Position numbers and translations under genes: made by a program. From Chloroflexota bacterium (GTDB lineage Bacteria > Chloroflexota > Dehalococcoidia > SM23-28-2 > RBG-16-64-32), in assembly GCA_029262695.1 (NCBI GenBank), contig JAJCYV010000022.1:190886-254885 (forward strand): 64,000 nucleotides of DNA, in the 5' to 3' direction. Positions 24,790 to 39,070 of the stretch are shown piece after piece (positions within the stretch are counted from its first letter, which is position 1; the number at the start of each line of letters is the position of its first letter). A model generated the notes under the pieces. It did not search any database. It was not told the DNA's origin and saw only the letters and a list, made by a program, of their open reading frames with translations.

Positions 24790-25512
24790 ATGCTGGTGGA
24801 CAGGCACACGATCGTGACCCGAAGACCGTTTCCGCTCCTGCTTGTCCCGCTCTGCCTCGTCCTGGCCGCGCTGGCCGCCTGTGGTGGCACGGACAACGGC
24901 TCTTCCAGCGATCCGGCGGCCACGTCGCCGGACGAGCTTCCGGTTGCCGAACTCGGCACACGCTGGGCCACGGCCGAGGCGCAGTCGCTCCAGGCGCTCG
25001 TCGCCTCCACCAACTGGCACTTCACCGCCGAGGTCATCGGCCTCGACCATCAGGAAGAGATCGACCTCGTACCGGACGTGCCCGGCGCGACTCCCGCGCC
25101 GCCGCACCCCGACAAGCCGATACCAGCGAACGACGGCCCGCCGCCCCTTCCCGTCTCGTACTGGGAAGTGCGCGTCACCGACGTAATCTCCGGCGACCTC
25201 AGCCCCGGCGACACGATCCTCATCCGCCAGATGGGCGGCGTTCACGAACAATCGACCGGATCTCTGATCCGCGTCCAGTTCGAGGACGACCCGCCGCTGG
25301 CACCGGGTGAAGAGTACCTGCTCTTCACGCAGGCTTCGTCGAGCAACGTTGTGCAGACTTCTCCCTTCATGCGCATGCAGGTGAACGCGGACGGTTCCTA
25401 CGCCGCCGAAGCGGGGTGGGGCGGCCTGGGCGCGATGGCGGAGATCTCCTCGCTGAGTTCTCCCAGCGCGAAAAGCGCGATCAGGGCCGCGGCCGAAGGA
25501 GCCGGAGAATGA
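24790..25512 (+). CDS. Lipoprotein, coupled to the downstream protease
   Basis: Lipobox LAAC; ATGA overlap with the next gene. Confidence 0.75.
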   Translation: MLVDRHTIVTRRPFPLLLVPLCLVLAALAACGGTDNGSSSDPAATSPDELPVAELGTRWATAEAQSLQALVASTNWHFTAEVIGLDHQEEIDLVPDVPGATPAPPHPDKPIPANDGPPPLPVSYWEVRVTDVISGDLSPGDTILIRQMGGVHEQSTGSLIRVQFEDDPPLAPGEEYLLFTQASSSNVVQTSPFMRMQVNADGSYAAEAGWGGLGAMAEISSLSSPSAKSAIRAAAEGAGE

Positions 25513-28493
25513 ACCGCCGATACGCGCTCGCGCTGACCGCGGTCGTGCTGACGGTCACCGGCATCCTTGCTGGCCTCCAGTTGAACTCCGCTCTAGCGAA
25601 CCACAACCCGGCAGAGGAGCCCGAAAAGAGACTCTTCGGCGAACGCTGGTACCACTCGCCTAACGGCACGCCTTACGTGGAACTCTCCACTAGTTCTGTC
25701 CGCAACGGTTGCGACGGCGACCCCGTGGCCTGTGGCGCGAAATGGAACGGCCCGGTTTCCGGCGGCATCATCGACTGGAACCTGCAGGAAACGACCGTCC
25801 TCTTCGACCCGCAGGGCGACCAGAGCCACTTCTACGACGTCAACATCCAGATCCTTGATAGGCTCTGCGACGCTGACCCGTCACTGCAGCCGGCACCGCC
25901 GGACGACTTCTCCTGTACAGATCTCGGAGTGCAGGCCCCTTACGACTCGAACTACGACTACTGCACCGCCGCCTGCACGACGTACTACGCGTGGGTGTTC
26001 ATCAGCGACGATGAGCACACCGGCCCGTTCGGCGTGCCAGACCAACGCCAGGGCACGGCAGCCCACGAGCTGGGCCACGCCCTGAACCTGAAACACGAGA
26101 GTTCGGGCCTGCCCTGCGGCACGGGCCCCGGCGCCATCGACATCCCGCACTCGGTGGAGGCGTACAACTGCATCGACCCGCCCGCCGAACTCATCGCCGG
26201 CAACCCCGGCCAGGACGAGGGCTACGTACACGACTGGGACGTCTGCGGCGTCAACCACGCCTACCCCGACACCACGATCGGCACCGCCGGCTGCGCGCCG
26301 ACGTGCGGCGGCACGAATGGCGGCTTCGAGAACGGGCTCACTGGCTGGACCCAGGGCACCGTGACTGAGAGCATCACGGCTGTCGGCGTCGACAACATCA
26401 GTGCGGGCAACAACGCCTCGCCGCTCGAAGGCTTGAAGATGGCCCGGCTGGGTCAGAAACAGTCGTCATCCGGGCCGAACCAGCCCGAGGGCCCAAACCA
26501 GCTGTTCCAGATCTTCACGGTGAACAACCCTCAGTTGCGCTGCGCCTACGAGCTGTTCACGTACGACTACTTCGGCTTCGACGAGATCACCGTGGAGCTG
26601 ACCCGCGTCGACACGGGCGCCGTAATCTACTCAACGCGCACGGGCGCGTGGGGCCCCAGTGGCAACACCGACCTGAAGCGGACCGGCTGGAGGATCGTCA
26701 ACGTAGACATGCGCAACCATCTGGGCCGGCAGGTGAAGCTCCAGTTCAGCGCCGCCGGCACCAGCGACAGCCTCTACGCCACCTGGGGCTACGTCGATTC
26801 GGCCGAGATGCAGAAGCCCCTGGACGTCGTCGATACGCCGGCGACTACCGTCGGCGGCGAACCGCCGATGATCGACCCTAACACCGGTCAGATCGTCGTG
26901 CCGGTGTCGCCCGGCGACGACACGGTTCAGATCTCGACTCCGGTCACGTGTCCGGGCGGGGCGTCGCCAACGTCCGTGAGCGCGACCCTCAGCGAGGCGC
27001 CGGAGAGCCCTGTTGCCGCCCCCACTATCACGATCTCCCTCACCAAGGGCGCCGGCGATATCTGGTCGGGCACCTTCAACCTGCCACCGGGCCAGCCGGA
27101 CGCCACCGTCTGGGACCTCAACTACATCGTCAACTGCCCGGACAGCCCGGTCCCGATCGCCGTGCCCGTCGGCAAGGTGATCCTCATCGACCCCAGCGGC
27201 TTCATCACCGACGCCGTCACCAGTCTGCCGATCCCGGGCGCGACCGTCTGGCTGCAGATCTTCAAGGACGGCACGTGGCAGAACTCCAACCCGTTCTTCC
27301 TGATCGACGGCCAGCCGACGATCTCCCCTCAGATCAACCCGCAGACAACCGACAGCAAAGGCCACTACGGCTGGGACGTCGCCGCCGGCAAGTACCGCGT
27401 CGTCGTCACAGCCGACGGCTACATCGGCCAGACCAGCTACGAGGTCAACATCCCACCACCGGTCTTCGACCTCAACCTGGCGCTACAGCCGATCGGCAGC
27501 GGCGGCACGCCAACTCCGACTCCGGTCCCAACGACGCCACCGCCGAGCGGCGTGACCTGGGGCGACGTCAACTGCTCCGGCGGCGGCCCGAACCCGGTCG
27601 ACTCGCTCTTGATCCTGCGCGACGACGCCGGCATCTCTTCCCTGACGGTGCAGGGCGTCTGCCCGCTGCTCGGCACGCAACTGCCGGTCAACGGCGCCCT
27701 GCGATTCTGGGGCGACCTGGACTGCTCCGGTAGTCCACCAGACCCGGTCGACGCGCTCAAGACGCTGCGCCACGACGCCGGCCTGAGCGTGCCGAAAGCA
27801 GACCCGACCTGCCCCAACGCCGGCTCGCCCGTGAACCTGGGTTCGGCCCCCACGCCGACGCCGGTGGCCACGCCAACCCCAACAGCGGCTCCGACGAACA
27901 CGCCGACGCCATCGCCAACGGCGTCACCCAGCCCGTCACCGACGGCAGTCCCGACGGCGTCGCCCAGCCCGTCACCGACGCCGGCGCCCACCGTGCCTCC
28001 TAGTCCGACGACGAGCTGTCCCGGCAGCGGCGCTGGCTTCCCGTTCACCATTCCAGACCTCGACGAACCCGGTGGCCCGGCCGGCATCACGCTCTCCCTT
28101 CTCGGCCAGACCGGCGGCACGATCACCGACCTCGACATCTGCGTCAACGTCGACCACACGTGGGTGGGCGACCTCTTCGTCGAGGTCGAGCACGTCGACA
28201 CGGGAACGACGGTCACGCTGATCGATCAGCCTGGACTACCCGGCGTCGCCTTCGGCTGCTCCGGAGAAAACATCCGTGCCCTGATGGCAGACGAGGCCGC
28301 CACACCGATCGAAGGCGAATGCGCTGGGTCAACGCCGACGATCAACGGCGCGTTCCGGCCGAACCAGCCGCTGAGCGCCTTCGACGGCGAGCAGAGAGCC
28401 GGTGACTGGGAAGTCCGGTTCTTCGACGTGGAGGGCGATCTCCACGAAGTCGGCTCCGTAGTAGGCGCCTCGTTCTTCTTCACGAATCAGTAG
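25509..28493 (+). CDS. Secreted multidomain metzincin-like protease (HELGHALNLKH) with carboxypeptidase-regulatory-like, dockerin-like, Pro/Thr linker and proprotein-convertase P domains
   Basis: Signal peptide; zinc motif; IDPSG/PQTTDSKGHY; WGDVNC..VDSLLILR / WGDLDC..VDALKTLR; HTWVGDL, GDWEV. Confidence 0.85.
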   Translation: MNRRYALALTAVVLTVTGILAGLQLNSALANHNPAEEPEKRLFGERWYHSPNGTPYVELSTSSVRNGCDGDPVACGAKWNGPVSGGIIDWNLQETTVLFDPQGDQSHFYDVNIQILDRLCDADPSLQPAPPDDFSCTDLGVQAPYDSNYDYCTAACTTYYAWVFISDDEHTGPFGVPDQRQGTAAHELGHALNLKHESSGLPCGTGPGAIDIPHSVEAYNCIDPPAELIAGNPGQDEGYVHDWDVCGVNHAYPDTTIGTAGCAPTCGGTNGGFENGLTGWTQGTVTESITAVGVDNISAGNNASPLEGLKMARLGQKQSSSGPNQPEGPNQLFQIFTVNNPQLRCAYELFTYDYFGFDEITVELTRVDTGAVIYSTRTGAWGPSGNTDLKRTGWRIVNVDMRNHLGRQVKLQFSAAGTSDSLYATWGYVDSAEMQKPLDVVDTPATTVGGEPPMIDPNTGQIVVPVSPGDDTVQISTPVTCPGGASPTSVSATLSEAPESPVAAPTITISLTKGAGDIWSGTFNLPPGQPDATVWDLNYIVNCPDSPVPIAVPVGKVILIDPSGFITDAVTSLPIPGATVWLQIFKDGTWQNSNPFFLIDGQPTISPQINPQTTDSKGHYGWDVAAGKYRVVVTADGYIGQTSYEVNIPPPVFDLNLALQPIGSGGTPTPTPVPTTPPPSGVTWGDVNCSGGGPNPVDSLLILRDDAGISSLTVQGVCPLLGTQLPVNGALRFWGDLDCSGSPPDPVDALKTLRHDAGLSVPKADPTCPNAGSPVNLGSAPTPTPVATPTPTAAPTNTPTPSPTASPSPSPTAVPTASPSPSPTPAPTVPPSPTTSCPGSGAGFPFTIPDLDEPGGPAGITLSLLGQTGGTITDLDICVNVDHTWVGDLFVEVEHVDTGTTVTLIDQPGLPGVAFGCSGENIRALMADEAATPIEGECAGSTPTINGAFRPNQPLSAFDGEQRAGDWEVRFFDVEGDLHEVGSVVGASFFFTNQ

Positions 28494-28779: not shown

Positions 28780-30168
28780 ATGCCGGACGATACCCGTACT
28801 GAGAGCGACTCCATGGGCCCGATGCAGGTGCCCGCCTCCGCCTACTACGGCGCCTCCACCCAGCGCGCCGTGCTCAACTTCCCGATCAGCAGCCGCCGCT
28901 TCACCCGGCCGTTCATCCGGATCCTCGGCTTAACGAAGCTGGCCGCGGCGCGCGTCAACACGGGCCTCGGCCTCCTCGACGAGAAGCTCGCCGGCGCCAT
29001 CGAGGAGGCGGCGCGAGAAGTGGCCGACGGCAAGCTCGACGAGCACTTCGTCGTCGACATCTTCCAGACCGGCTCCGGCACCTCCACCAATATGAACGCC
29101 AACGAGGTGATCGCCCACCGCGCCACGGAAATCCTCGGCGGCGAGCCCGGATCGAAGCTCGTCCACCCGAACGATCACGTGAACAAGGGCCAGTCCTCGA
29201 ACGACGTCATCCCCACGGCCGTGCACGTATCGGCGCTGGTCGAGATCGAGCACGAGCTGGTGCCGGCGCTGGAGCACCTGCAGGCTGCGCTGGATGCGAA
29301 GTCGCGCGAGTTCTGGGGCGTGATCAAGACCGGGCGCACGCACCTCCAGGACGCCACTCCCGTCCGCCTTGGCCAGGAGTTCCTGGGCTACGCCGGCCAG
29401 GTTGAACGCGGCGTACGGCGCGCGCGCCACGCCGCTGAGGAGCTATCTGAGGTGGCGCTCGGCGGCACCGCCGTCGGCACGGGCGTGAACACGCACCCGG
29501 AGTTCGCCGCGCGCGCCTGCGCCGTGCTCTCGGAGGAGCTTGGCCTGACGGTGCGCGAGACGGATAACCACTTCCAGGCGCAGAACACTCTGGACGGCGT
29601 ACTGGAGGCCAGCGGCGCGCTGCGCACCGTGGCCGTCAGCCTGCAGAAGATCGCCAACGACATCCGCTGGCTCGGCTCCGGGCCGCGCGCCGGCCTCGGA
29701 GAGCTGACGCTGCCGGAGGTGCAGCCCGGAAGCTCGATCATGCCGGGCAAGGTGAACCCCGTGATCGCCGAATCGCTGCTGCAGGCGGTGGCGCAGGTGA
29801 TCGGCAACGACGGGGCGATCCTCATCGCAGCCCAGGGCGGCCACTTCGAGCTGAACATGATGCTACCGGTCGCCAGTCACAGCCTCCTCGACTCGATCGA
29901 GCTGCTGGCGGCCTCGGCCCGCAACTTCGCCGACCAGTGCGTCAGCGGCCTTGCGGCGACCGAGCACGGCCCGGCGACGGTGGAGCGCGGCCTCATGCTG
30001 GGTACGGCGCTAGCGCCCGCCGTCGGCTACGACGCAGCCGCCGCGATCGCCAAGGAGGCGTCGAAGACAGGCCGCACGATCCGCGAAGTCGCCCGCGAAC
30101 GCAGCGAGCTGTCGGAGGAGGAGCTGGAGGCTCTGCTCGATCCGGAGAAGATGACCGAGCCGGGATAA
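28780..30168 (+). CDS. fumC: Class II fumarate hydratase
   Basis: FQTGSGTSTNMN, GRTHLQDA, GSSIMPGKVNP. Confidence 0.95.
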   Translation: MPDDTRTESDSMGPMQVPASAYYGASTQRAVLNFPISSRRFTRPFIRILGLTKLAAARVNTGLGLLDEKLAGAIEEAAREVADGKLDEHFVVDIFQTGSGTSTNMNANEVIAHRATEILGGEPGSKLVHPNDHVNKGQSSNDVIPTAVHVSALVEIEHELVPALEHLQAALDAKSREFWGVIKTGRTHLQDATPVRLGQEFLGYAGQVERGVRRARHAAEELSEVALGGTAVGTGVNTHPEFAARACAVLSEELGLTVRETDNHFQAQNTLDGVLEASGALRTVAVSLQKIANDIRWLGSGPRAGLGELTLPEVQPGSSIMPGKVNPVIAESLLQAVAQVIGNDGAILIAAQGGHFELNMMLPVASHSLLDSIELLAASARNFADQCVSGLAATEHGPATVERGLMLGTALAPAVGYDAAAAIAKEASKTGRTIREVARERSELSEEELEALLDPEKMTEPG

Positions 30169-30694: not shown

Positions 30695-30755
30695 GTCCAG
30701 AGCTTATCAGCCCCGAGGTCTGTGATGGACGCGTGCGTTGGTCTTGTTGCGATGT

Positions 30756-30845
30756 TTAGTTGCGGAGGAACGGTGCGCCCGCGACAGCGAGAGCAGCGCC
30801 AACAACCATCAGACTAAATGCAACGTAGGTGAGTCGGGCCTTCAT
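30756..30845 (-). CDS. Peptide A, MKARLTYVAFSLMVVGAALAVAGAPFLRN (29 aa)
   Basis: Manual translation; purine-rich RBS; TTGACA at 30920-30915 upstream. Confidence 0.7.
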   Translation of the reverse strand: MKARLTYVAFSLMVVGAALAVAGAPFLRN

Positions 30846-30890
30846 CCAAACCCCCCTTCCTTCAATGAATTACCCCTTTCAGGGCAGCCC

Positions 30891-30957
30891 ATTAATATCC
30901 CAATACTATTGGCTTGTCAAGGGTTTTGGATAGAAATCTCGAAGACTTGGGAGATTT
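30891..30957 (-). promoter_or_regulatory. Promoter for peptide A/DUF5317 with palindromic operators
   Basis: TTGACA plus AT-rich -10 region; CCAATA-C-TATTGG at 30900-30912 in the spacer; AAATCTC-N10-GAGATTT at 30934-30957. Confidence 0.6.
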
Positions 30958-30971
30958 AGCCAGTTATCGTA

Positions 30972-31012
30972 AAGCAAACACGGGGGCTCCGGACTTTCGG
31001 AGCTCCCCGTGT
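30972..31012 (-). terminator. Intrinsic terminator
   Basis: ACACGGGGAGCTCCG-AAAGT-CCGGAGCCCCCGTGT + TTGCTTT on the minus strand. Confidence 0.75.
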
Positions 31013-31205
31013 CTCGCTATTCGATTCCTGGCCCGTGGACTGCCGGTGCGCGCTGCCGAGGGAGGGCAGCTTACCCTGTCGGTCTCCCTGGTCAGCGCAG
31101 GCAGTAGGAGTGGTTGAGGGGGACCTGGGGCGGCCGCCAGCCTGTCTTCGTCGGAAGCGGCGGCGGCGGGGCGGGGCCCTTGTTGCGGGCCCCTTCTTGC
31201 GGGTC

Positions 31206-31337
31206 TTAGAGGAAGGGGCTTTGTGCTGCGACGGCGGCCAGGACCAGCGCCACGCTGGTGATCACCACGTTCAGCCGAATCGCCGGCCGGGAGTTCGTAT
31301 TCATTCCTTCCGGTCCGTTCTCACGTCGAATTGCCAT
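31206..31337 (-). CDS. Peptide B, (MAIRRENGPEG)MNTNSRPAIRLNVVITSVALVLAAVAAQSPFL (43 or 32 aa)
   Basis: Manual translation; starts at 31337 (AAGGA RBS) or 31304; paralogous to peptide C. Confidence 0.7.
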   Translation of the reverse strand: MAIRRENGPEGMNTNSRPAIRLNVVITSVALVLAAVAAQSPFL

Positions 31338-31349
31338 GCGAGCAGTCCT

Positions 31350-31445
31350 TTAGATTAGCGGGCTCTGCGCGGCCACCAGCGCCAGCAGCAGCGCCAGTGT
31401 TGTTACCGCCCTGTTGAAGCCAACTGTCTTTCCGATTCGCTTCAT
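31350..31445 (-). CDS. Peptide C, MKRIGKTVGFNRAVTTLALLLALVAAQSPLI (31 aa)
   Basis: Manual translation; shares VAAQSP end with peptide B. Confidence 0.72.
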   Translation of the reverse strand: MKRIGKTVGFNRAVTTLALLLALVAAQSPLI

Positions 31446-31499
31446 CAACTTGCTCGTACTACCTTAACGATTCCTTAGCCGATACCGATGAACCCGTAA

Positions 31500-31589
31500 C
31501 TAGGCGATCGCCTGGCGGCGGTCGTTGCGGCCACCCAGGCCCTGGTTGTCGAAGCTCCACTTGATCGCGTTGCGGGTTCGGTTCTTCAT
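31500..31589 (-). CDS. Peptide D, MKNRTRNAIKWSFDNQGLGGRNDRRQAIA (29 aa)
   Basis: Manual translation; GAGGAAG RBS; paralogue of peptide E. Confidence 0.75.
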   Translation of the reverse strand: MKNRTRNAIKWSFDNQGLGGRNDRRQAIA

Positions 31590-31607
31590 CTGATTCTTCC
31601 TCGCTGC

Positions 31608-31843
31608 TGCTTTCGTTCTCTTCTGTGGCTACAGTGTCGCAAGCGGCTCTCGCCGGTTTCTCGCCAGAAATCTCACCAGGCTACGCAATCTGCCCGCGGC
31701 GGCCGTTCAGGCCCTGGTCCTCGTAGCTCCACTTGATTGCGTTGCGTGTGCGATTCTTCATCTGGTTTCTTCCTTGCTACTGCTTTCGTTCTCTTCTGTG
31801 GCTACAGTGTCGCAAGTGGCTCTCGCCGGTTTCTCGCCAGAAA
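31608..31843 (-). promoter_or_regulatory. Duplicated ~63-bp upstream element (31608-31670 and 31781-31843) with GGCGAGA direct repeats
   Basis: TCTCGCC at 31648/31659 (plus TCTCACC at 31671) and at 31821/31832; 11-bp period. Confidence 0.8.
31681..31761 (-). CDS. Peptide E, MKNRTRNAIKWSYEDQGLNGRRGQIA (26 aa)
   Basis: First 12 residues identical to peptide D despite several synonymous third-position changes. Confidence 0.75.
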   Translation of the reverse strand: MKNRTRNAIKWSYEDQGLNGRRGQIA

Positions 31844-31914
31844 ATGTCCGTACCTGAGCCAGATACGAAGAAGCGGCCCGCGAAGGCCGCTCAGGTGTGT
31901 CTGGCGAGATTTTC

Positions 31915-34900
31915 TTATGCGCGTTTGGGCGAGCCGGCTCCGATCTCTCTGACGAGATCGTCGAAGTCGGCGACTTCGCCCGCCAGGTCGTCATCCTCAG
32001 ATACGATCTGTACGTAGCGGTTGTAGCAGTACTTCGCCGCTTCCGTCTGCTGCGCCTGTACGTAGTTGCTCATCAGGCGGTACCAGGCGGCCTCGTTGAA
32101 CTCGTCCAACTCGACGATCTTCTGGCAGATATCGGCGCTCTTCTTGAACTCACCGGCCTCGTTGTAGGCGGCCGAGAGGCTGCCGAGGAGGCTCATGTAC
32201 TGCTCTTCGAGCTGCCAGCGCAATGTTTCCGCCCATTCTGAGTAGAATTCGGGCGCAAACTGGCCCTTGTACAGGCTCACGGCTCGCTCCATCTGCTTCA
32301 GCGCCTCGTCTGTGGCCTCGGCTCCCGAAGCGGCCTCCAACGCCACCTGGAAGCGCTCCACGTCGAAAGCGAAGCTGCCGTTTGGGTCCAGCTGGTAACG
32401 CCCGGACTCCTTGGAGATGATGTCCTTGTACAGCGCCTTGCGCAGCCGGTACATGTTCGAATGAAAAGCGCTCGTCGTCTTCTCTTCGGTCATATCGGGC
32501 CACAGCGCAGCCACGATCTCCTCCTTGCGCAGCCCGCGGCGGTTGCAGAGGAAGAAGAAGAACATCTCGCGGCTCTTCTCGCTGCGCCACTCCAGGTCAG
32601 TGACCTCCTGGCCGTTGTACTCCACACGAGCGTGGCCGAACCCAAACCCCGTGACCGCCGCCTCGTCGGTAGCGACGCCGTCATCGGAATCGCCCTCGGC
32701 GGCCGGCGTGGCGCCCTTCATCAGCTTCTTCAGCCGGGCGTAGTAACCGTCCGCCGCCTTGTTCGCCGCGCCGTACTGGACGAGGAGCGGGTTACGGGCC
32801 GCCTCTACCAGCAAGAAGTGGTCATATCCCAGCTCCTTTACCAGTTCGGCCACCTTTTCCAGGTACTCCAGCGCCACCCGTTTCTTCTTGAGCGAGAAGT
32901 AGGCGCCCGCGGCGTGGAAGTAGGCCGCCGCCAGCTCTCGCCGGGCGTCCTTCTCGCGCAGGTACGGAACCGCCCGCTCCAGGTACTCGACGGCCTCCTT
33001 GAGTTCGCCCTGCTGGCGCTGGATCAGACCCTTCGTGACCAGGCAGATGCCCTGCTCCAGGTCGCCCTCGGTCTTCTCCGCTTCAGCGCTGGCCCGCCCC
33101 GCCCAGGACTCAGCCTGTACGAGGTCGCCCATCAGGCGGTGGGTGTTGGCGACGGCGTCCATGATGTACACACAGATGTAGGCGTCGCCGATGCTCCAGG
33201 CGTCGTCGAGGACCTCGTTGTAGGCATCGAGCGCGGCCTGGTGCTCACCCATCTCGCGCTGGATATCCGCCAGTGACGTGGTTAGGTAGACCTCTTTCTG
33301 CAGGTTGCTAGTGACGCGAACATGCTCAAGACCTTGTTCGTAGATCTCCTTTGCGCGGGCAAAGTCGCCCTGCAGGTAGTAGATCATCCCGAGGTTCACC
33401 AGAGTCTGCACCAGCCGGCCATCGTTGCCCAGCTGTGCACAGAGCTGTCGGGCGCGCTCCAGGTAGCCCACCGCCTCCGGTAGGCGCCCCATCAGGCCCA
33501 GCGAGCTACCGAGGTCCGCGCAAACGTAGGAGATGTTGTACACGTCGCCCACTGTCTCGTAGATATCGACTACCGCAGACAGTTCCTCGATGGCTTCCTT
33601 GAGGTCACCGCAACGGCTGAGAGTCGAGCCCAGCTCCTTACGTGCCTCCGTGACCGTCTCCTCCGGGGCTTCGTGCTCGCTCAGCAGATCGCACGCGCGC
33701 TGGAGGGCGTCCCGCGATTCGAGGTAGTCGCCCTTGACCCGCAGGCTCATGCCGCGCGTCACGAGCGCCTCCGCCAGCGGTACCCAGTCCTCCTTCTCCT
33801 CCAGCAACACGATCGCCTTCGAGACGAGCGAGAGAGCGGCATCGAGCTGGTTCAGGTAGTGCAGAACCCGCCCCTTCCAGAGCATCAGCTGCGGCTGCGA
33901 AGTCATCTCTTCCGCCGGCACGCTGCTCAGCCAGTCGGCCAGTGTGTCGAGCCTGCCCTCCTCGAACATTCGCCAGCCAACCTCTTGGGTTACTTCAATT
34001 ACGTTGTCCCAGGCCGCCGCCTGGATGTAGTGATAGACGGCGTCCTCCCAGCGCTCGTCACTCTCCATTCGCTGAGCGGCGAGCATGTTGAGTTCGCGAA
34101 ACTGCTCTCCGTTGTTGCTGCGGACGTGGCTCACAAGGAAGGCGCGGAGGAGGCTGTGGTAGCGGTAGCGGACGTCTCCGCCCTCCTCTTCGACGAGGGC
34201 GAGGTTAAGGTTCTGCAGCTGCGTCAGCTTCTCCTGCGCGTCTGAGCGCTCCAGCAGCTCATTGACAGACTCAACGCCAATCGTGCGCAGGACTGCGCTG
34301 CTCAGGAGGAACTCCTTGATCTCCGCCGAAAGCGGGTCAAACTGCTCCAGCGAGATGTACTGGAACAGCGTATCGGAGTGGTTCAGCTGCTCCAGGTCGA
34401 CGGAACCCGCCGACTGGACGCGGTCGGCCAGCAGGATCAGCGCGCCCGCCCAGCCCTCCGTAACGTTGGCCATATGCTGAGCATCGTCAAGCGAGATCTC
34501 GCGGCCGAGGACCTCGCGGAAGAGCTGCACGACCTCATCGCAGCTGAACTCGAAGTCGGCAGCGTACAGGCTTGATACTTCCTGGCGCACCGTCATCATC
34601 GGCAGAACGCCGATCTGCGGGCGGGTGCGGCTGCCGAGGATCACGTGGCAGCCCTGCGGCAGCCGGTAGAGCCACCCTTCGACCGCCTTTCGGGTCTCCT
34701 CCGTTGCCGCGTCCAGGTAGTGAAAGTCGTCGATGACGAACAGGTACTCTTCCTGTGGCTCACCGCAGGCCCGCACCATCAGCTCAGAGGCCTCCTCCGG
34801 CGTCACCGGGCCGCCGCTCTCGAGCGCCTTCGCCAGGCCCGAGCCGAAGCCGGGGAACGCCTGCTGGCCGGAGGCTACGAAGTAGCGGAGGAAGGTGTTC

Positions 34901-35436: not shown

Positions 35437-36480
35437 TTGACCGCCGAACGGGCCGGCGCGAAGATGGGGCAGATGAACCCTGGCGCCCCACCGGAACCGC
35501 CCCTCCCCTTCCGCCTCCGAGCAGCCCTCAAGCCCGCATTGCTCCTGGCGCTGACTGCGTCACTCGCACTGGCGGCGATGATCGGCCTCGGCGCCCACGG
35601 GACCGGCGCCGACCCCTCCTTCGACAGCGAGGAGCAGGCGTTCCTGGCGCTGATCAACGATTACCGCGCTCAGAACGGCCTTACGCCGAACGCCCGCGCG
35701 CCGCTGACCACGGACTGCCGCCTCAACGCCGCCGCCGACTGGTTCGCCAACGATATGGCGATCGACAACTATTGGCCGATTAATCACCACGACAACGAGG
35801 ACCCGCCGCGCAACCCGGCCGAGCGCGCGGCGGCGTTCGGCTTCAACGCCCCCGTTGGAGAGAACATCGCCGGGGGTTACACGACGGCGGAATCAGTGTT
35901 TGCGGCGTGGAAGGGGTCATCCGGCCACAACTCCAACATGCTCGGCAACTATGCGGCGATCGGTATCGGCCGGGCCTATCACCCCAACGCCCAATACGGC
36001 TGGTACTGGGTGACGGACTTCGCGGCCTACGTGCCGGCGCCCGCGCAACCGGCGTGCTCCCCACCGGCGACGCCTCCACCGGCAACGACCAGCGCTCCCG
36101 CGCCGACACCAACGCCCACACCGACGCCCACGCCCGCGCCGACGCCGACTCCGACGCCCGCGCCAACGGCTACGCCCGTCCCACCGCCTGCGCCGACGAC
36201 CGAACCGCTCATCTGGGGCGATACCAACTGCGCCGGCACCATCGGCCCGGTGGACTCGATCCGCGTGCTGCGGCTGGACGCCGGCCTGTTCACGACTACG
36301 CCAGCGGGGTGCCCGCCGATGGGCAGCGAGGTGTTCGTGGGCGGGATCATGCACCTCTGGGGCGACGTCAACTGCCGCAACGGCCCCGATCCGGTGGACG
36401 CGATGCTGATGCTGCGCTACGACGCCGGGCTGAGCGTCAACATTCCAGAAGACTGCCCCGGCCTGGGCGAACCGGTCTAG
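35437..36480 (+). CDS. Secreted CAP (SCP) domain protein with PT linker and dockerin-like tail
   Basis: LINDYR, GENIA, W..SSGH..NML, IGIG, YWVTDF; WGDTNC..VDSIRVLR / WGDVNC..VDAMLMLR; start may be 35464 or 35473. Confidence 0.85.
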   Translation: MTAERAGAKMGQMNPGAPPEPPLPFRLRAALKPALLLALTASLALAAMIGLGAHGTGADPSFDSEEQAFLALINDYRAQNGLTPNARAPLTTDCRLNAAADWFANDMAIDNYWPINHHDNEDPPRNPAERAAAFGFNAPVGENIAGGYTTAESVFAAWKGSSGHNSNMLGNYAAIGIGRAYHPNAQYGWYWVTDFAAYVPAPAQPACSPPATPPPATTSAPAPTPTPTPTPTPAPTPTPTPAPTATPVPPPAPTTEPLIWGDTNCAGTIGPVDSIRVLRLDAGLFTTTPAGCPPMGSEVFVGGIMHLWGDVNCRNGPDPVDAMLMLRYDAGLSVNIPEDCPGLGEPV

Positions 36481-37311: not shown

Positions 37312-38166
37312 CTAGCCCTGCCTCTTCAACTTCCCGGTGCGCTTGGCCCAGCGCTCGGCCACTGCGAACACGAACACGGAGAACGGCACGAGCAGGACGC
37401 CAAAGAGCGCGAGGATGCCCAGCGTCCCCGCCATCTCACCGACGCTATCGCCTCCGATGATCGCGCCGCGGATGCCGTCGAGAATGTACGTGGCGGGCGA
37501 GGCGTAGGAGAAGACCTGCAACCAGCCGGGAAGCACCTCGACGCTGTAGTAGACACCGGAGATCAGCAGCACGACCGCCTGCACCATGAACGACATCTGC
37601 GTTCCGCGCTCCGGATAGAGCAGCGGCAGCACGCCGGCGAGGATGCCCAGCCCGGCGATACTGAGGCTGCCGACGGCGATCACGGCGGCCGCCGCCACCC
37701 AGTCGGCCTGCGAGAAGTCGACGGCGAAGAACGGCAGGGCGATGGCGAAGATGAGGAGCGTGCGCACTATCGCATGCAGCACGCCGAACACGGACATGCC
37801 GACGAGGTGCACCCAGCGAGGCACGGGCGCCATCAGCGTATGCTCGATCGTCCCCTCCCAGCGCTCCCACGTGACGACGAGGCTGATGTCGTCGAGGACG
37901 GCTGAGAGGTAGGCCCAGACGAGCGTGCCCAGGAGGAGGAAGAGAACCAGATCGTTCGCGTCACGGGCGCCGGCGATCCCGGCCTGTTCCACCTCCTTGG
38001 CGATGAACGTGATCGCCAGCGTGTTGACCACGCCGTACACGAGCCACACCAGCTCCCACGCCCAGTAGCGCTTCCAGAGGTTCGTCTGCCGCTCCACGAA
38101 CGCCCAGGCCAGAGTCGCCGGCCCGGACGACCGTGGAGCGGCCATCGGATTCGTGAAACTAGCCAT
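37312..38166 (-). CDS. ABC-2 type permease
   Basis: WERWEGTIE, SGVYY...LPGWLQ; multi-TM. Confidence 0.9.
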   Translation of the reverse strand: MASFTNPMAAPRSSGPATLAWAFVERQTNLWKRYWAWELVWLVYGVVNTLAITFIAKEVEQAGIAGARDANDLVLFLLLGTLVWAYLSAVLDDISLVVTWERWEGTIEHTLMAPVPRWVHLVGMSVFGVLHAIVRTLLIFAIALPFFAVDFSQADWVAAAAVIAVGSLSIAGLGILAGVLPLLYPERGTQMSFMVQAVVLLISGVYYSVEVLPGWLQVFSYASPATYILDGIRGAIIGGDSVGEMAGTLGILALFGVLLVPFSVFVFAVAERWAKRTGKLKRQG

Positions 38167-39070
38167 GGGCCGCTACCTCCGCCGGCGCTTCATCCTCTTC
38201 GAGGTCGTGGCCGGTCAGCTCCATGAACACGTCCTCCATGTCGATCTCCTCCACCGGACGGCCGCGCGCCACCCGCTCGCGCAGCGCCAGCGGTGTCCCG
38301 CTGGCGACGATGCGTCCGCCGGCGATGAACGAGATGCGGTCGCAGAGGACCTCCGCTTCCTCCATGTCGTGCGTCGTCAGGAGGATCGTCGCGTCGTGGT
38401 CGCGCTGGACGTCGCGGATGAAGCGCTGGACGTCGCGCCGCGAGCGCGGGTCGAGGCCCGTCGTCGGCTCGTCCAGCAGCATCATCACCGGCGACGTGAG
38501 GAAGGAGCGCGCCACGGCCACCTTCTGCTGCTGCCCGCGCGAGAGGTGGTTCATCTGCTCGGCCGCCAGCTCCTCCGCGAAGCCCAGGCGCCGCAGCACG
38601 TCCGGCACCAGCACCCGGATCTCGCCGGGCGTCAGTCCGTAGATGCGCCCGAAGAAGAGCAGGTTTTCGTACGCCGACATGTTGCGGAAGAACGACGGGT
38701 CGGCCGACACGCGGTTGATCAGCGCGCGCACAGAGCCCGCTGCGCTGACGACGTCGTGGCCAAACACCTCGACGCTGCCGCTATCCGGCAGGAGCAGAGT
38801 GCTCAGCACGCGCACCAACGTGGACTTGCCGGAGCCGTTGGCGCCGATGAGGCCGAAGACTTCGCCGCGCCCCACCTCGAACGAGACGTCCTGCAGCACG
38901 TGCGCCACCGCCGGCGGGTTCGCCGTGACGGGCAGGCACCACGAAACGAGCTTGCGGTATTGAAAGCCGCCGCCAAAGTATTTGTTCAGGTTGGTCACCC
39001 TGAGTGCTTGCTGTTCCATCTCAGCCTCCCTGCTGGTCTCCGGGCTGTCCGGTCCGAATGATCGGCTCAT
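38159..39070 (-). CDS. ABC exporter ATP-binding protein (DrrA-like)
   Basis: GANGSGKST, LSRGQ, LLDEPTTGLD; start 39070 or 39019. Confidence 0.92.
   Translation of the reverse strand: MSRSFGPDSPETSREAEMEQQALRVTNLNKYFGGGFQYRKLVSWCLPVTANPPAVAHVLQDVSFEVGRGEVFGLIGANGSGKSTLVRVLSTLLLPDSGSVEVFGHDVVSAAGSVRALINRVSADPSFFRNMSAYENLLFFGRIYGLTPGEIRVLVPDVLRRLGFAEELAAEQMNHLSRGQQQKVAVARSFLTSPVMMLLDEPTTGLDPRSRRDVQRFIRDVQRDHDATILLTTHDMEEAEVLCDRISFIAGGRIVASGTPLALRERVARGRPVEEIDMEDVFMELTGHDLEEDEAPAEVAAHG

Follow-up and report, generated by a model that had tools for sequence, protein, structure and literature searches.

The stretch analysed here (in the following the window) comprises 64,000 nt of a Chloroflexota bacterium (GCA_029262695.1, contig JAJCYV010000022.1, positions 190,886–254,885), whose assembly consists of 2.53 Mb in 44 contigs and is 90 % complete. 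Its minus strand carries, in downstream order, the gene of a large regulator, two closely similar units A1 and A2 (each with a pair of GGCGAGA heptamers, termed boxes, a -10-like element and a micropeptide gene), the genes of the micropeptides C, B and D, and the gene of a DUF5317 membrane protein. The two units are interpreted, with moderate confidence, as tandem promoters dependent on activation by the adjacent regulator, and the A peptides as their translated and selected products.

Tandem units and layout of the module

Each unit consists of two heptamers, a spacer (9 nt from heptamer to GACACT in both A1 and A2), the hexamer GACACT, a leader, a ribosome-binding site and an open reading frame (ORF). 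This two-copy arrangement, initially recognized from the letters alone (the sequence-only reading), was confirmed on the minus strand with the coordinates as read (Table 1). The A1 boxes begin 77 nt past the regulator stop codon on the same strand, and A2 begins only 15 nt after A1 with identical layout. A repeat search determined a tandem period of 172–173 bp, the 77-nt block of promoter and leader sharing 96 % identity between A1 and A2 and the 69-nt coding block 84 %. The conserved core of the 11-bp repeat amounts to 8 bp, (T/C)GGCGAGA, and a third, degenerate repeat (GGTGAGA) is located 12 nt before the first A2 box. The leader of A1 (37 nt) is purine-rich and unfolded (-1.3 kcal/mol). Transcription start sites (TSSs) are predicted near 31799 for A1 and near 31626 for A2.

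The genome-wide scan for GGCGAGA-N4-GGCGAGA suggested by the sequence-only reading retrieved the exact 18-nt box pair at two sites of the 2.53-Mb assembly, i.e., at A1 and A2. One more site (contig C3) appeared with a single mismatch, compared to 4 sites at ≤1 mismatch with a reversed-pattern control, and the 4 sites found in the window with two mismatches are not above chance (2.86 expected from shuffles). Since degenerate matches are at chance level, the evidence consists of the exact copies at A1 and A2 together with their conservation. One inverted GGCGAGA heptamer at 31903–31909 (plus strand), just past the regulator stop codon and ~65 bp upstream of the A1 boxes, may be due to chance, as 11 GG[CT]GAGA matches occur per one strand of 15 kb.

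C has no boxes of its own and is therefore presumably co-transcribed from the promoters of the A units. The hairpin downstream of B (-45.1 kcal/mol, z -7.68, 0/200 shuffles as stable), preceded by a weak hairpin, probably represents the 3' end of the A1-A2-C-B transcript(s); the hairpin behind the regulator was recognized in the fold of 31915–31850 (-28.9 kcal/mol, z -4.24, 0/200 shuffles as stable). A scanner for sigma-70 promoters returned none between 30000 and 32000, as expected for activator-dependent promoters devoid of a -35; the TATTAA element ahead of D is not listed either, because the scanner rule requires T at the last position. Rfam covariance models yielded no match at E ≤ 1 on either strand of 30700–32000.

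Table 1 Features of the module and their positions in the window
Feature	Position	Strand	Basis or remark
Regulator gene, 1100 aa	31915..35217	-	MalT-like STAND NTPase, TPR and C-terminal SARP
Terminator-like GC hairpin 3' of the regulator stop, then CUUCGU	31871..31892	-	RNA fold
A1 direct repeats GGCGAGA-AACC-GGCGAGA, 11-bp period	31821..31838 (31838-31832, 31827-31821)	-	Predicted SARP-dimer site, -35 replaced
A1 extended -10-like element TGCGACACT	31806..31814	-	GACACT 31811-31806, TG 31814-31813
A1 micropeptide gene, 26 aa, MKNRTRNAIKWSYEDQGLNGRRGQIA	31681..31761	-	AAGGAAGAA ribosome-binding site upstream; orthologues in G001 and G006; codon-level conservation
A2 direct repeats GGCGAGA-AACC-GGCGAGA	31648..31665 (31665-31659, 31654-31648)	-	Read from the sequence
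A2 extended -10-like element TGCGACACT	31633..31641	-	GACACT 31638-31633
A2 micropeptide gene, 29 aa, MKNRTRNAIKWSFDNQGLGGRNDRRQAIA	31500..31589	-	Orthologues and codon conservation
C, single-transmembrane micropeptide, 31-32 aa, ends AAQSPLI	31350..31448	-	Orthologues; no own boxes
B, single-transmembrane micropeptide, 43 aa, ends AAQSPFL	31206..31337	-	Orthologues; no own boxes
Strong intrinsic-terminator-like hairpin, U-rich tail	30973..31014	-	RNA fold
Sigma-70-like promoter TTGACA-17 nt-TATTAA, ahead of D and DUF5317	30892..30920	-	Read from the sequence; similar element in congener G004
D, single-transmembrane micropeptide, 29 aa (MKARLTYVAFSLMVVGAALAVAGAP...)	30756..30845	-	Directly upstream of DUF5317
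DUF5317 membrane protein, 171 aa	30179..30694	-	Pfam PF17248, 2.4e-24

The surroundings of the module encode a 1025-aa protein with a CarboxypepD_reg-like domain (25416–28493, plus strand), fumarase C (28780–30168), an ABC-2 transporter pair (37312–39070), a secreted CAP-domain protein and an enoyl-CoA hydratase; a further gene external to the module is located at 35437–36480 (plus strand). None of these outer neighbours is kept together with the module.

The regulator, its SARP domain and the boxes

The regulator combines a MalT-like STAND NTPase (residues ~39–462) and a tetratricopeptide repeat (TPR) region (~470–800) with a SARP domain composed of a winged helix-turn-helix (wHTH) and a BTAD (~855–1095). 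Pfam assigns AAA_16/NACHT (residues 59–237), TPR_12, TPR_MalT and BTAD (residues 952–1075, 1.3e-11) and gives no match of Trans_reg_C to the regulator at E ≤ 0.01; NCBIfam assigns MalT (NF003420, residues 39–462, 1.1e-66, below the equivalog cut-off) and AfsR (residues 892–1012, 2.5e-18). A profile built from the last 250 residues of 35 regulator homologues matches AfsR (8k60, 8jke, 8hvr) over the whole domain (AfsR residues 24–265, E ~4e-23) and also EmbR (7.5e-14). The AlphaFold (AF2) model of the C-terminal part (mean predicted local distance difference test score, pLDDT, 93.3) retrieved as top Foldseek hit AfsR in the afsS transcription complex (8hvr_I, E 6.6e-11, TMq 0.77), followed by EmbR. 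The C-terminus is a bona fide SARP domain, and the regulator is a large SARP in reverse domain order to AfsR (NTPase-TPR-wHTH-BTAD). This order is common to 35/35 aligned homologues, all of which carry the SARP domain elsewhere than at the N-terminus, whereas in the small and large SARPs depicted in PMC10936776 this domain comes first and any additional domains follow it; according to the titles of related contigs, the family belongs to Chloroflexota. With MalT, the STAND activator of E. coli, the regulator shares a match of its N-terminal 420 aa to the corresponding model together with TPR_MalT repeats, which implies signal- and ATP-dependent oligomerisation; the two differ in their output domain, which is SARP (wHTH-BTAD) here and LuxR-type in MalT.

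The genome of the organism also encodes a paralogous regulator of the same architecture and 28 % identity (contig C20:54000–64000, locus L020; L020:4869–7967, minus strand). CGTGAGA-N4-TGTGAGA is present just past its stop codon, together with genes for a 31-aa transmembrane (TM) peptide (MFSLRS...AAGAPFAMP) and a second DUF5317 protein, and an FG-GAP/TSP3 repeat protein is encoded upstream. In the single-contig genome G006, the orthologous regulator (L016 5983–9981, minus strand) is split into two ORFs of 684 and 616 aa, due to a frameshift or an assembly error.

According to the available part of PMC10936776, the direct repeats of SARP targets are spaced by 11 or 22 bp, and 8 bp separate the 3' repeat from the -10; the same part describes the afs box as two 11-bp repeats (-40 to -19), the first 8 bp of each being contacted, and the -10 of afsS as a weak CACTGT. 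The geometry assumed in the sequence-only reading, i.e., heptamers spaced by 4 nt just upstream of the -10, agrees with this description. The units of the window likewise display two 11-bp repeats with an 8-bp core and no -35, such that their geometry fits the SARP rule but for one base. The -10 hexamers are located one base further off than a simple count gives.

Arrays of 2–3 GGCGAGA units are located behind the orthologous regulator in G006 and G001 (same genus) as well as in G017 and G016 (other genera), the regulators of the latter two sharing 54–59 % identity with that of the window. All four genomes and locus L021 also share a TG-N-GA(C/G/A)ACT element whose distance to the boxes is fixed. 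Box and -10 pattern were matched by 102 JGI metagenome stretches with 1–3 tandem units, most of them with 2–3 copies 140–230 bp apart, the -10 and the geometry having been part of the search pattern.

Distant regulator homologues (23–30 % identity) are followed just past the stop codon by other 11–12-bp repeats (GGTAAGA, TGTAAGA, GGTAAGG, TTTGAAGCC); the repeats comprise TGGTAAGAG, TGTAAGAG, CGGTAAGGTCC, TTTTGAAGCCTG (12-bp period) and CGGCGGCT, each present twice; the C20 paralogue has CGTGAGA/TGTGAGA. Exact 8-mers repeated at 11–12 bp were detected in 11/22 segments downstream of the regulators compared to 23/299 control segments of the same loci, a contrast for which the p-value overstates, since the 22 segments originate from related loci and the trials are not independent.

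The recognition helix of the wHTH reads T(T/S)SAFHSNMYRLRKA (SAFHS) in all GGCGAGA loci, FHI(N/T) is paired with G/TGTAAGA, and RFKN with TTGAAGCC, supporting a co-variation of recognition helix and box sequence. The regulator of locus L026, with the recognition helix NSAFHSTLYRLRKA (SAFHS as well), is just 26 % identical overall and yet accompanied by GGCGAGA boxes. Orthologue conservation, the repeats at distant loci and the co-variation of helix and box together make direct control the best reading, and the boxes are very likely to be the sites of the adjacent regulator. The sequence-only reading, which had proposed both units as direct targets of this regulator, is thereby well supported with respect to SARP domain, geometry, orthologues and helix co-variation; the binding that it entails is a prediction.

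A peptides, transmembrane micropeptides and DUF5317

Altogether 54 A-type ORFs (45 distinct) were collected, and 46 ORFs including A1 and A2 were analysed, with L061 dropped as a chance match. They are found in 9/43 genomes and 3/17 genera of the family, always in tandem, as well as in 22/161 metagenomic units typed. Codons 1–12 of A1 and A2 differ only by AAT/AAC, CGC/CGA, ACA/ACC and GCA/GCG, confirming the four exclusively synonymous changes noticed at first sight, and the protein-level selection deduced from them is borne out by the codon analysis of all 46 ORFs. Within the motif (T/S)RN(A/M)IKW, of which only the R, N, A and T/S positions are unbiased since I, K and W were contained in the search pattern, Arg is invariant (46/46) through CGC, CGA, CGG, AGA and AGG, Asn is kept in 42/46, and Ala is written with four codons; pN/pS (non-synonymous versus synonymous changes) over the 8-codon core is 0.29. 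RNAIKW is present once each in A1 and A2 and twice, in frame, in one peptide of G017, G050, G054 and L188. The tails are variable, with 13–26 residues between motif and stop, and those of G016 read through the boxes of the next unit. This codon pattern argues for protein-level selection on a short linear motif, and A is highly likely to be a functional peptide. By analogy with AfsS, from which the idea draws its only plausibility, A may also act on the regulator, in line with the role of intracellular ligand considered in the sequence-only reading, a suggestion which is tentative and rather doubtful.

Searches with tblastn yielded no further copy of A1, A2, C or B in the genome, and in the ESM Atlas no usable match was retrieved for an A peptide of 37 aa from G016; B matched only small clusters without a name. 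Complex prediction for regulator residues 240–870 with A2 (alignments of 35 and 46 rows) gave a score of 0.02 against a mark of 0.32, which counts neither for nor against an interaction, A2 being outside the calibration with <30 residues.

Typing of 161 units in 80 of the 102 metagenome loci revealed that the usual cargo is of the C/B type, i.e., a single-TM peptide of 29–32 aa (131/161; e.g., MNLNTKTAKLNWIVTLLALTLATVAAQSPFF); next to these and the A-type units, 5 units drive something else and 3 have no ORF in view. In L127, L165 and L173, GGCGAGA box and -10 precede Flp-pilin-like genes (...EDGQALAEYGLLLALVAV...; three units, counted as TM), hence this type of regulator may control Flp/Tad-type pilins in some organisms. 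In a quick tree of the regulators, A-carrying arrays are confined to one clade of six (SH-like approximate likelihood ratio test, SH-aLRT, 99) plus G016, arrays with TM peptides only make up another clade, of 13 members, and TM peptides are also the cargo in the outgroups. The congener G004 (regulator 68 % identical) possesses a single box promoter that drives C/B-type peptides directly, without A, followed by the same terminator, a sigma-70-like promoter, a D peptide and DUF5317. Based on cargo counts, regulator tree and the layout in G004, A is regarded as a derived, lineage-specific soluble minority cargo of an older TM-micropeptide array.

The N-termini of both peptide types are alike (T-K-T-A-K-L-N-W in TM peptides, T-R-N-A-I-K-W in A), and a common origin of A and TM units is possible. 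Derivation of A from a TM unit by frameshift was considered and rejected: no TM segment is encoded in the other frames of A, and A and TM units in L141 align convincingly at the DNA level only across promoter and leader.

DUF5317 is encoded on the same strand, 627–1012 nt past the last box, in 24/27 metagenome loci with ≥2.5 kb downstream, and moreover in 9/22 loci of distant full-length homologues and in the C20 paralogue locus. Small ORFs homologous to D precede it in G006, G001, G049, G054, G050, G004 and at the paralogue locus of the own genome. Judged from this comparison, DUF5317 belongs to the module, a point which, like the reversed domain order and the minority status of the A cargo, goes beyond the sequence-only reading. 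The family comprises at least 1362 cluster representatives; among 96 members, the invariant positions are M88-P89 (in ANGGxMP), D131 (LSD) and S144-x-G146-D147. The AF2 model (pLDDT 92.7) consists of four long helices and short strands, for which Foldseek found nothing at E ≤ 0.001 (best E 0.64) and a VIA-wide comparison at best generic helix bundles (Z 7.7). Entries of lipoprotein signal peptidase (6ryo and 6ryp) matched only at E 2.2–3.3 with a TM-score of ~0.4, and no fold was assigned. The two invariant Asp residues suggest an enzyme, which is to be taken as a lead only.

Additional genes accompany the module in some lineages. A secreted Cys protein of 90–114 aa (...HEVLAGGCAGGDLHVMRY...WC) is encoded between the TM peptides and D/DUF5317 in a sister genus, at L018 (G017) and L103–L106 (G049, G054, G048, G050), and in L021; the window has no such protein. 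In G017, the gene of a binding protein of the OppA type (SBP_bac_5, 1.3e-68) is located just downstream. In Anaerolineae, an NHLP-clan Os1348-like ORF (L033:9024–9353; NF038399, 5.4e-6, below cut-off) and similar ORFs in L041, L079, L037 and L023 follow DUF5317.

Proposed mechanism, alternatives and relation to known systems

The following mechanism is proposed. Two 11-bp repeats form a 22-bp site that covers the -35/spacer region at a distance of 6 bp (9 nt from the heptamer) from the extended -10 downstream of it. Here, a side-by-side dimer of the C-terminal SARP domain would bind and bring in RNA polymerase in the manner of AfsR at afsS; the MalT-like NTPase and the TPR sensor would render activation signal-dependent. 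Transcripts would start at ~31799 and ~31626, encode A1 and A2, run on into C and B, since no terminator or attenuator is present between A2 and C, and end at 31014–30973, with D and DUF5317 being transcribed from their own promoter. The functional element of A would be (T/S)RN(A/M)IKW, its role most likely being protein binding and plausibly, in analogy with AfsS, binding to the regulator.

Several observations weigh against this mechanism. The spacer between heptamer and -10 is 9 nt, compared to the 8 quoted for actinobacterial SARPs in the available part of PMC10936776. With 7-mers at 10–12 bp, the contrast is weaker (12/22 vs 66/299 controls), as crude repeats are common, and 10/22 loci of distant homologues have no exact heptamer repeat downstream. 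The combination of a C-terminal SARP with AfsR-like contacts to RNA polymerase is an extrapolation. At the peptide level, the search bias at I, K and W counts here as well, and NCBIfam has no match for A1 and A2, nor for C and B. Finally, contigs from public RNA runs (assembled from relatives at 90–99 % identity and devoid of transcript ends) cover parts of the units, of the regulator and of DUF5317; they span the units (X17: 31402–31583 and 31614–31815), but as the regulator is covered at similar depth, they indicate neither start nor induction. In one of these contigs (X19), 31590 is joined to 31765 with 174 nt skipped, reflecting either an array with a single unit in a relative or a collapse of the repeat during assembly.

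Alternatively, the A ORFs could be regulatory leader peptides (upstream ORFs) without function in trans, translation of which or stalling at KW-x-D would control C and B. The position of A2 is compatible with this (52 nt ahead of C, same strand, no terminator in between), as are the conserved N-terminal part preceding variable tails and the layout in G004, where the same type of promoter directly precedes C/B and A thus corresponds to a leader position. However, no attenuator or alternative hairpin was recognized, the A2-C spacer folding no better than shuffled sequence (-10.2 kcal/mol, z +0.78, 164/200 shuffles as stable). Each A has a full promoter, A1 being followed by another promoter rather than by a structural gene. 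Coupling is also not obligatory, since the A units of G050/L185 have no C/B-type peptide before the next genes and G004 has C/B without A. Variable motif-to-stop distance (13–26) and doubled motif fit a binding motif better than an arrest site. Leader peptides for C and B, one of the roles considered in the sequence-only reading, are thus disfavoured and appear unlikely.

Similarly improbable is peptide signalling, in which DUF5317 would process C and B (and D) as pheromone precursors for sensing by the TPR region, with A as further outputs or modulators. In the RRNPP and Rgg/SHP systems of Firmicutes, the neighbours of a repeat-domain regulator gene include genes of very small, in part hydrophobic peptides, as is the case here. 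The TPR regulator of the window indeed adjoins hydrophobic peptides of very small size whose C-terminal tails are conserved, (Q/S)SP(F/L)(F/L/I), DUF5317 is conserved, spans the membrane several times and has invariant D131 and S-x-G-D147, G017 encodes an OppA-type binding protein downstream, and positive autoregulation via tandem promoters would suit a switch. On the other hand, linkage with Opp was seen in a single lineage, the fold of DUF5317 has no clear relative (Foldseek E 0.64; VIA Z 7.7), and the hydrophilic A peptides, which lack an export signal, are left unexplained. Moreover, the regulator in the window is of the STAND and SARP type, while the RRNPP regulators described are not known to be STAND or SARP proteins.

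With comparably low probability, one may speculate about a membrane-coupled peptide switch, in which DUF5317, with its two invariant Asp residues, one of them in S-x-G-D, would be a new intramembrane peptidase that cuts C, B and D. The ligand read by the TPR region would be the cytoplasmic N-terminal fragment set free by this cut (...TAKLNW), which would close a positive loop via the SARP promoters, and the A peptides (...RNAIKW) would be free-standing, membrane-independent mimics, evolved from a TM-peptide unit, that lock or tune the switch.

Slightly less probable still are precursors of ribosomally synthesized and post-translationally modified peptides (RiPPs), as also envisaged in the sequence-only reading, with an N-terminal leader, a variable core, an enzyme encoded elsewhere and control by a cluster-situated SARP. 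Conserved N-terminus, variable C-terminus and tandem paralogous precursor genes would agree with such a role, and SARPs are classically cluster-situated activators according to the available part of PMC10972967. Furthermore, the TPR region weakly matches the RiPP TPR protein HaaT (NCBIfam 2.6e-17, far below cut-off), and small proteins of the NHLP clan are encoded behind DUF5317 at some loci of Anaerolineae (NF038399, 5.4e-6, below cut-off). Beside the units, however, there is no conserved modifying enzyme, RiPP recognition element protein, peptidase or dedicated exporter (the ABC-2 transporter being three genes away), and peptide paralogues are absent elsewhere in the genome. What is conserved is a short motif, at times present twice within one peptide, and the supposed core has no Cys and few modifiable residues.

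That the adjacent regulator does not bind the boxes and that these reflect a recent local duplication, the heptamers serving another factor or none, would fit the 96 % identity over promoter and leader and the chance level of degenerate matches, but is very improbable, because the duplication predates the genus (orthologous pairs in G001 and G006), boxes and -10 are kept in other genera while leaders and ORFs diverge, and the box changes with the recognition helix, the paralogue of the own genome having its own variant box.

The preferred reading, i.e., tandem promoters activated by the adjacent regulator, has its closest analogue in AfsR-AfsS of Streptomyces. As described in the available part of PMC10832544, afsS sits next to afsR on its downstream side and is activated via the afs box, and AfsS (63–87 aa) is poorly conserved but for 2–5 short repeats that mediate AfsR binding. 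Common to both systems is a large STAND-type regulator with SARP DNA-binding domain and TPR sensor, whose target is the gene of a tiny hydrophilic protein directly downstream on the same strand with an activator box in the promoter. Likewise shared is the 22-bp pair of 11-bp repeats in place of a good -35 with a weak -10 (the CACTGT of afsS being contained in GACACTGT of the window), and the small product is centred on a short motif and otherwise poorly conserved; repetition of the motif within one peptide is a less certain parallel, as A1 and A2 contain it once each and peptides of G017, G050, G054 and L188 twice. The systems differ in the order of domains (NTPase-TPR-SARP with a MalT-like NTPase here, SARP-NOD-TPR in AfsR), in the phylum (Chloroflexota here) and in the presence of 2–3 full promoter-gene units versus one gene with internal repeats. 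Furthermore, the A peptides have 26–29 aa versus 63–87 aa of AfsS, to which they are likened by layout and motif, not by sequence, and promoters of the type in the window mostly drive TM micropeptides linked to DUF5317.

ActII-ORF4, RedD and DnrI are SARPs with heptamer-repeat promoters. Such small and medium-sized SARPs, as well as the PimR-type SARP-LAL, have in common with the present regulator the repeats of 11-bp period near the -10 and the wHTH plus BTAD (PMC5930380, available part), but carry the SARP domain N-terminally, act on biosynthetic targets and belong to Actinobacteria, in contrast to the C-terminal domain and the micropeptide targets here.

In the literature searched, the coverage of which leaves out most subscription literature, no paper on DUF5317 was found, and none among the papers listed joins SARP or AfsR with Chloroflexota. 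Known already are the action of SARPs on direct repeats and the large SARP with an adjacent small-protein gene; new are the MalT-SARP architecture in reversed order outside Actinobacteria, the arrays of promoter-micropeptide units in tandem, the RNAIKW family and the link of TM micropeptides with DUF5317. SARP-type activation, i.e., a wHTH-BTAD dimer on 11-bp repeats in place of the -35, would thereby be extended to Chloroflexota, in reversed order and with a MalT-like front. The pairs of helix and box (SAFHS/GGCGAGA, FHI/GTAAGA, RFKN/TTGAAGCC) are candidates for a recognition code or for orthogonal activator-promoter pairs. Gene families of 26–32 aa, each with its own predicted activator-dependent promoter, are tied to DUF5317, a protein unassigned in function. 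If the membrane-coupled switch holds true, A would be a Chloroflexota counterpart of AfsS with a traceable origin. If A acts on the regulator as AfsS does, the module would represent a second, independent case of a STAND regulator with a motif micropeptide, and would help to explain AfsS-type proteins.

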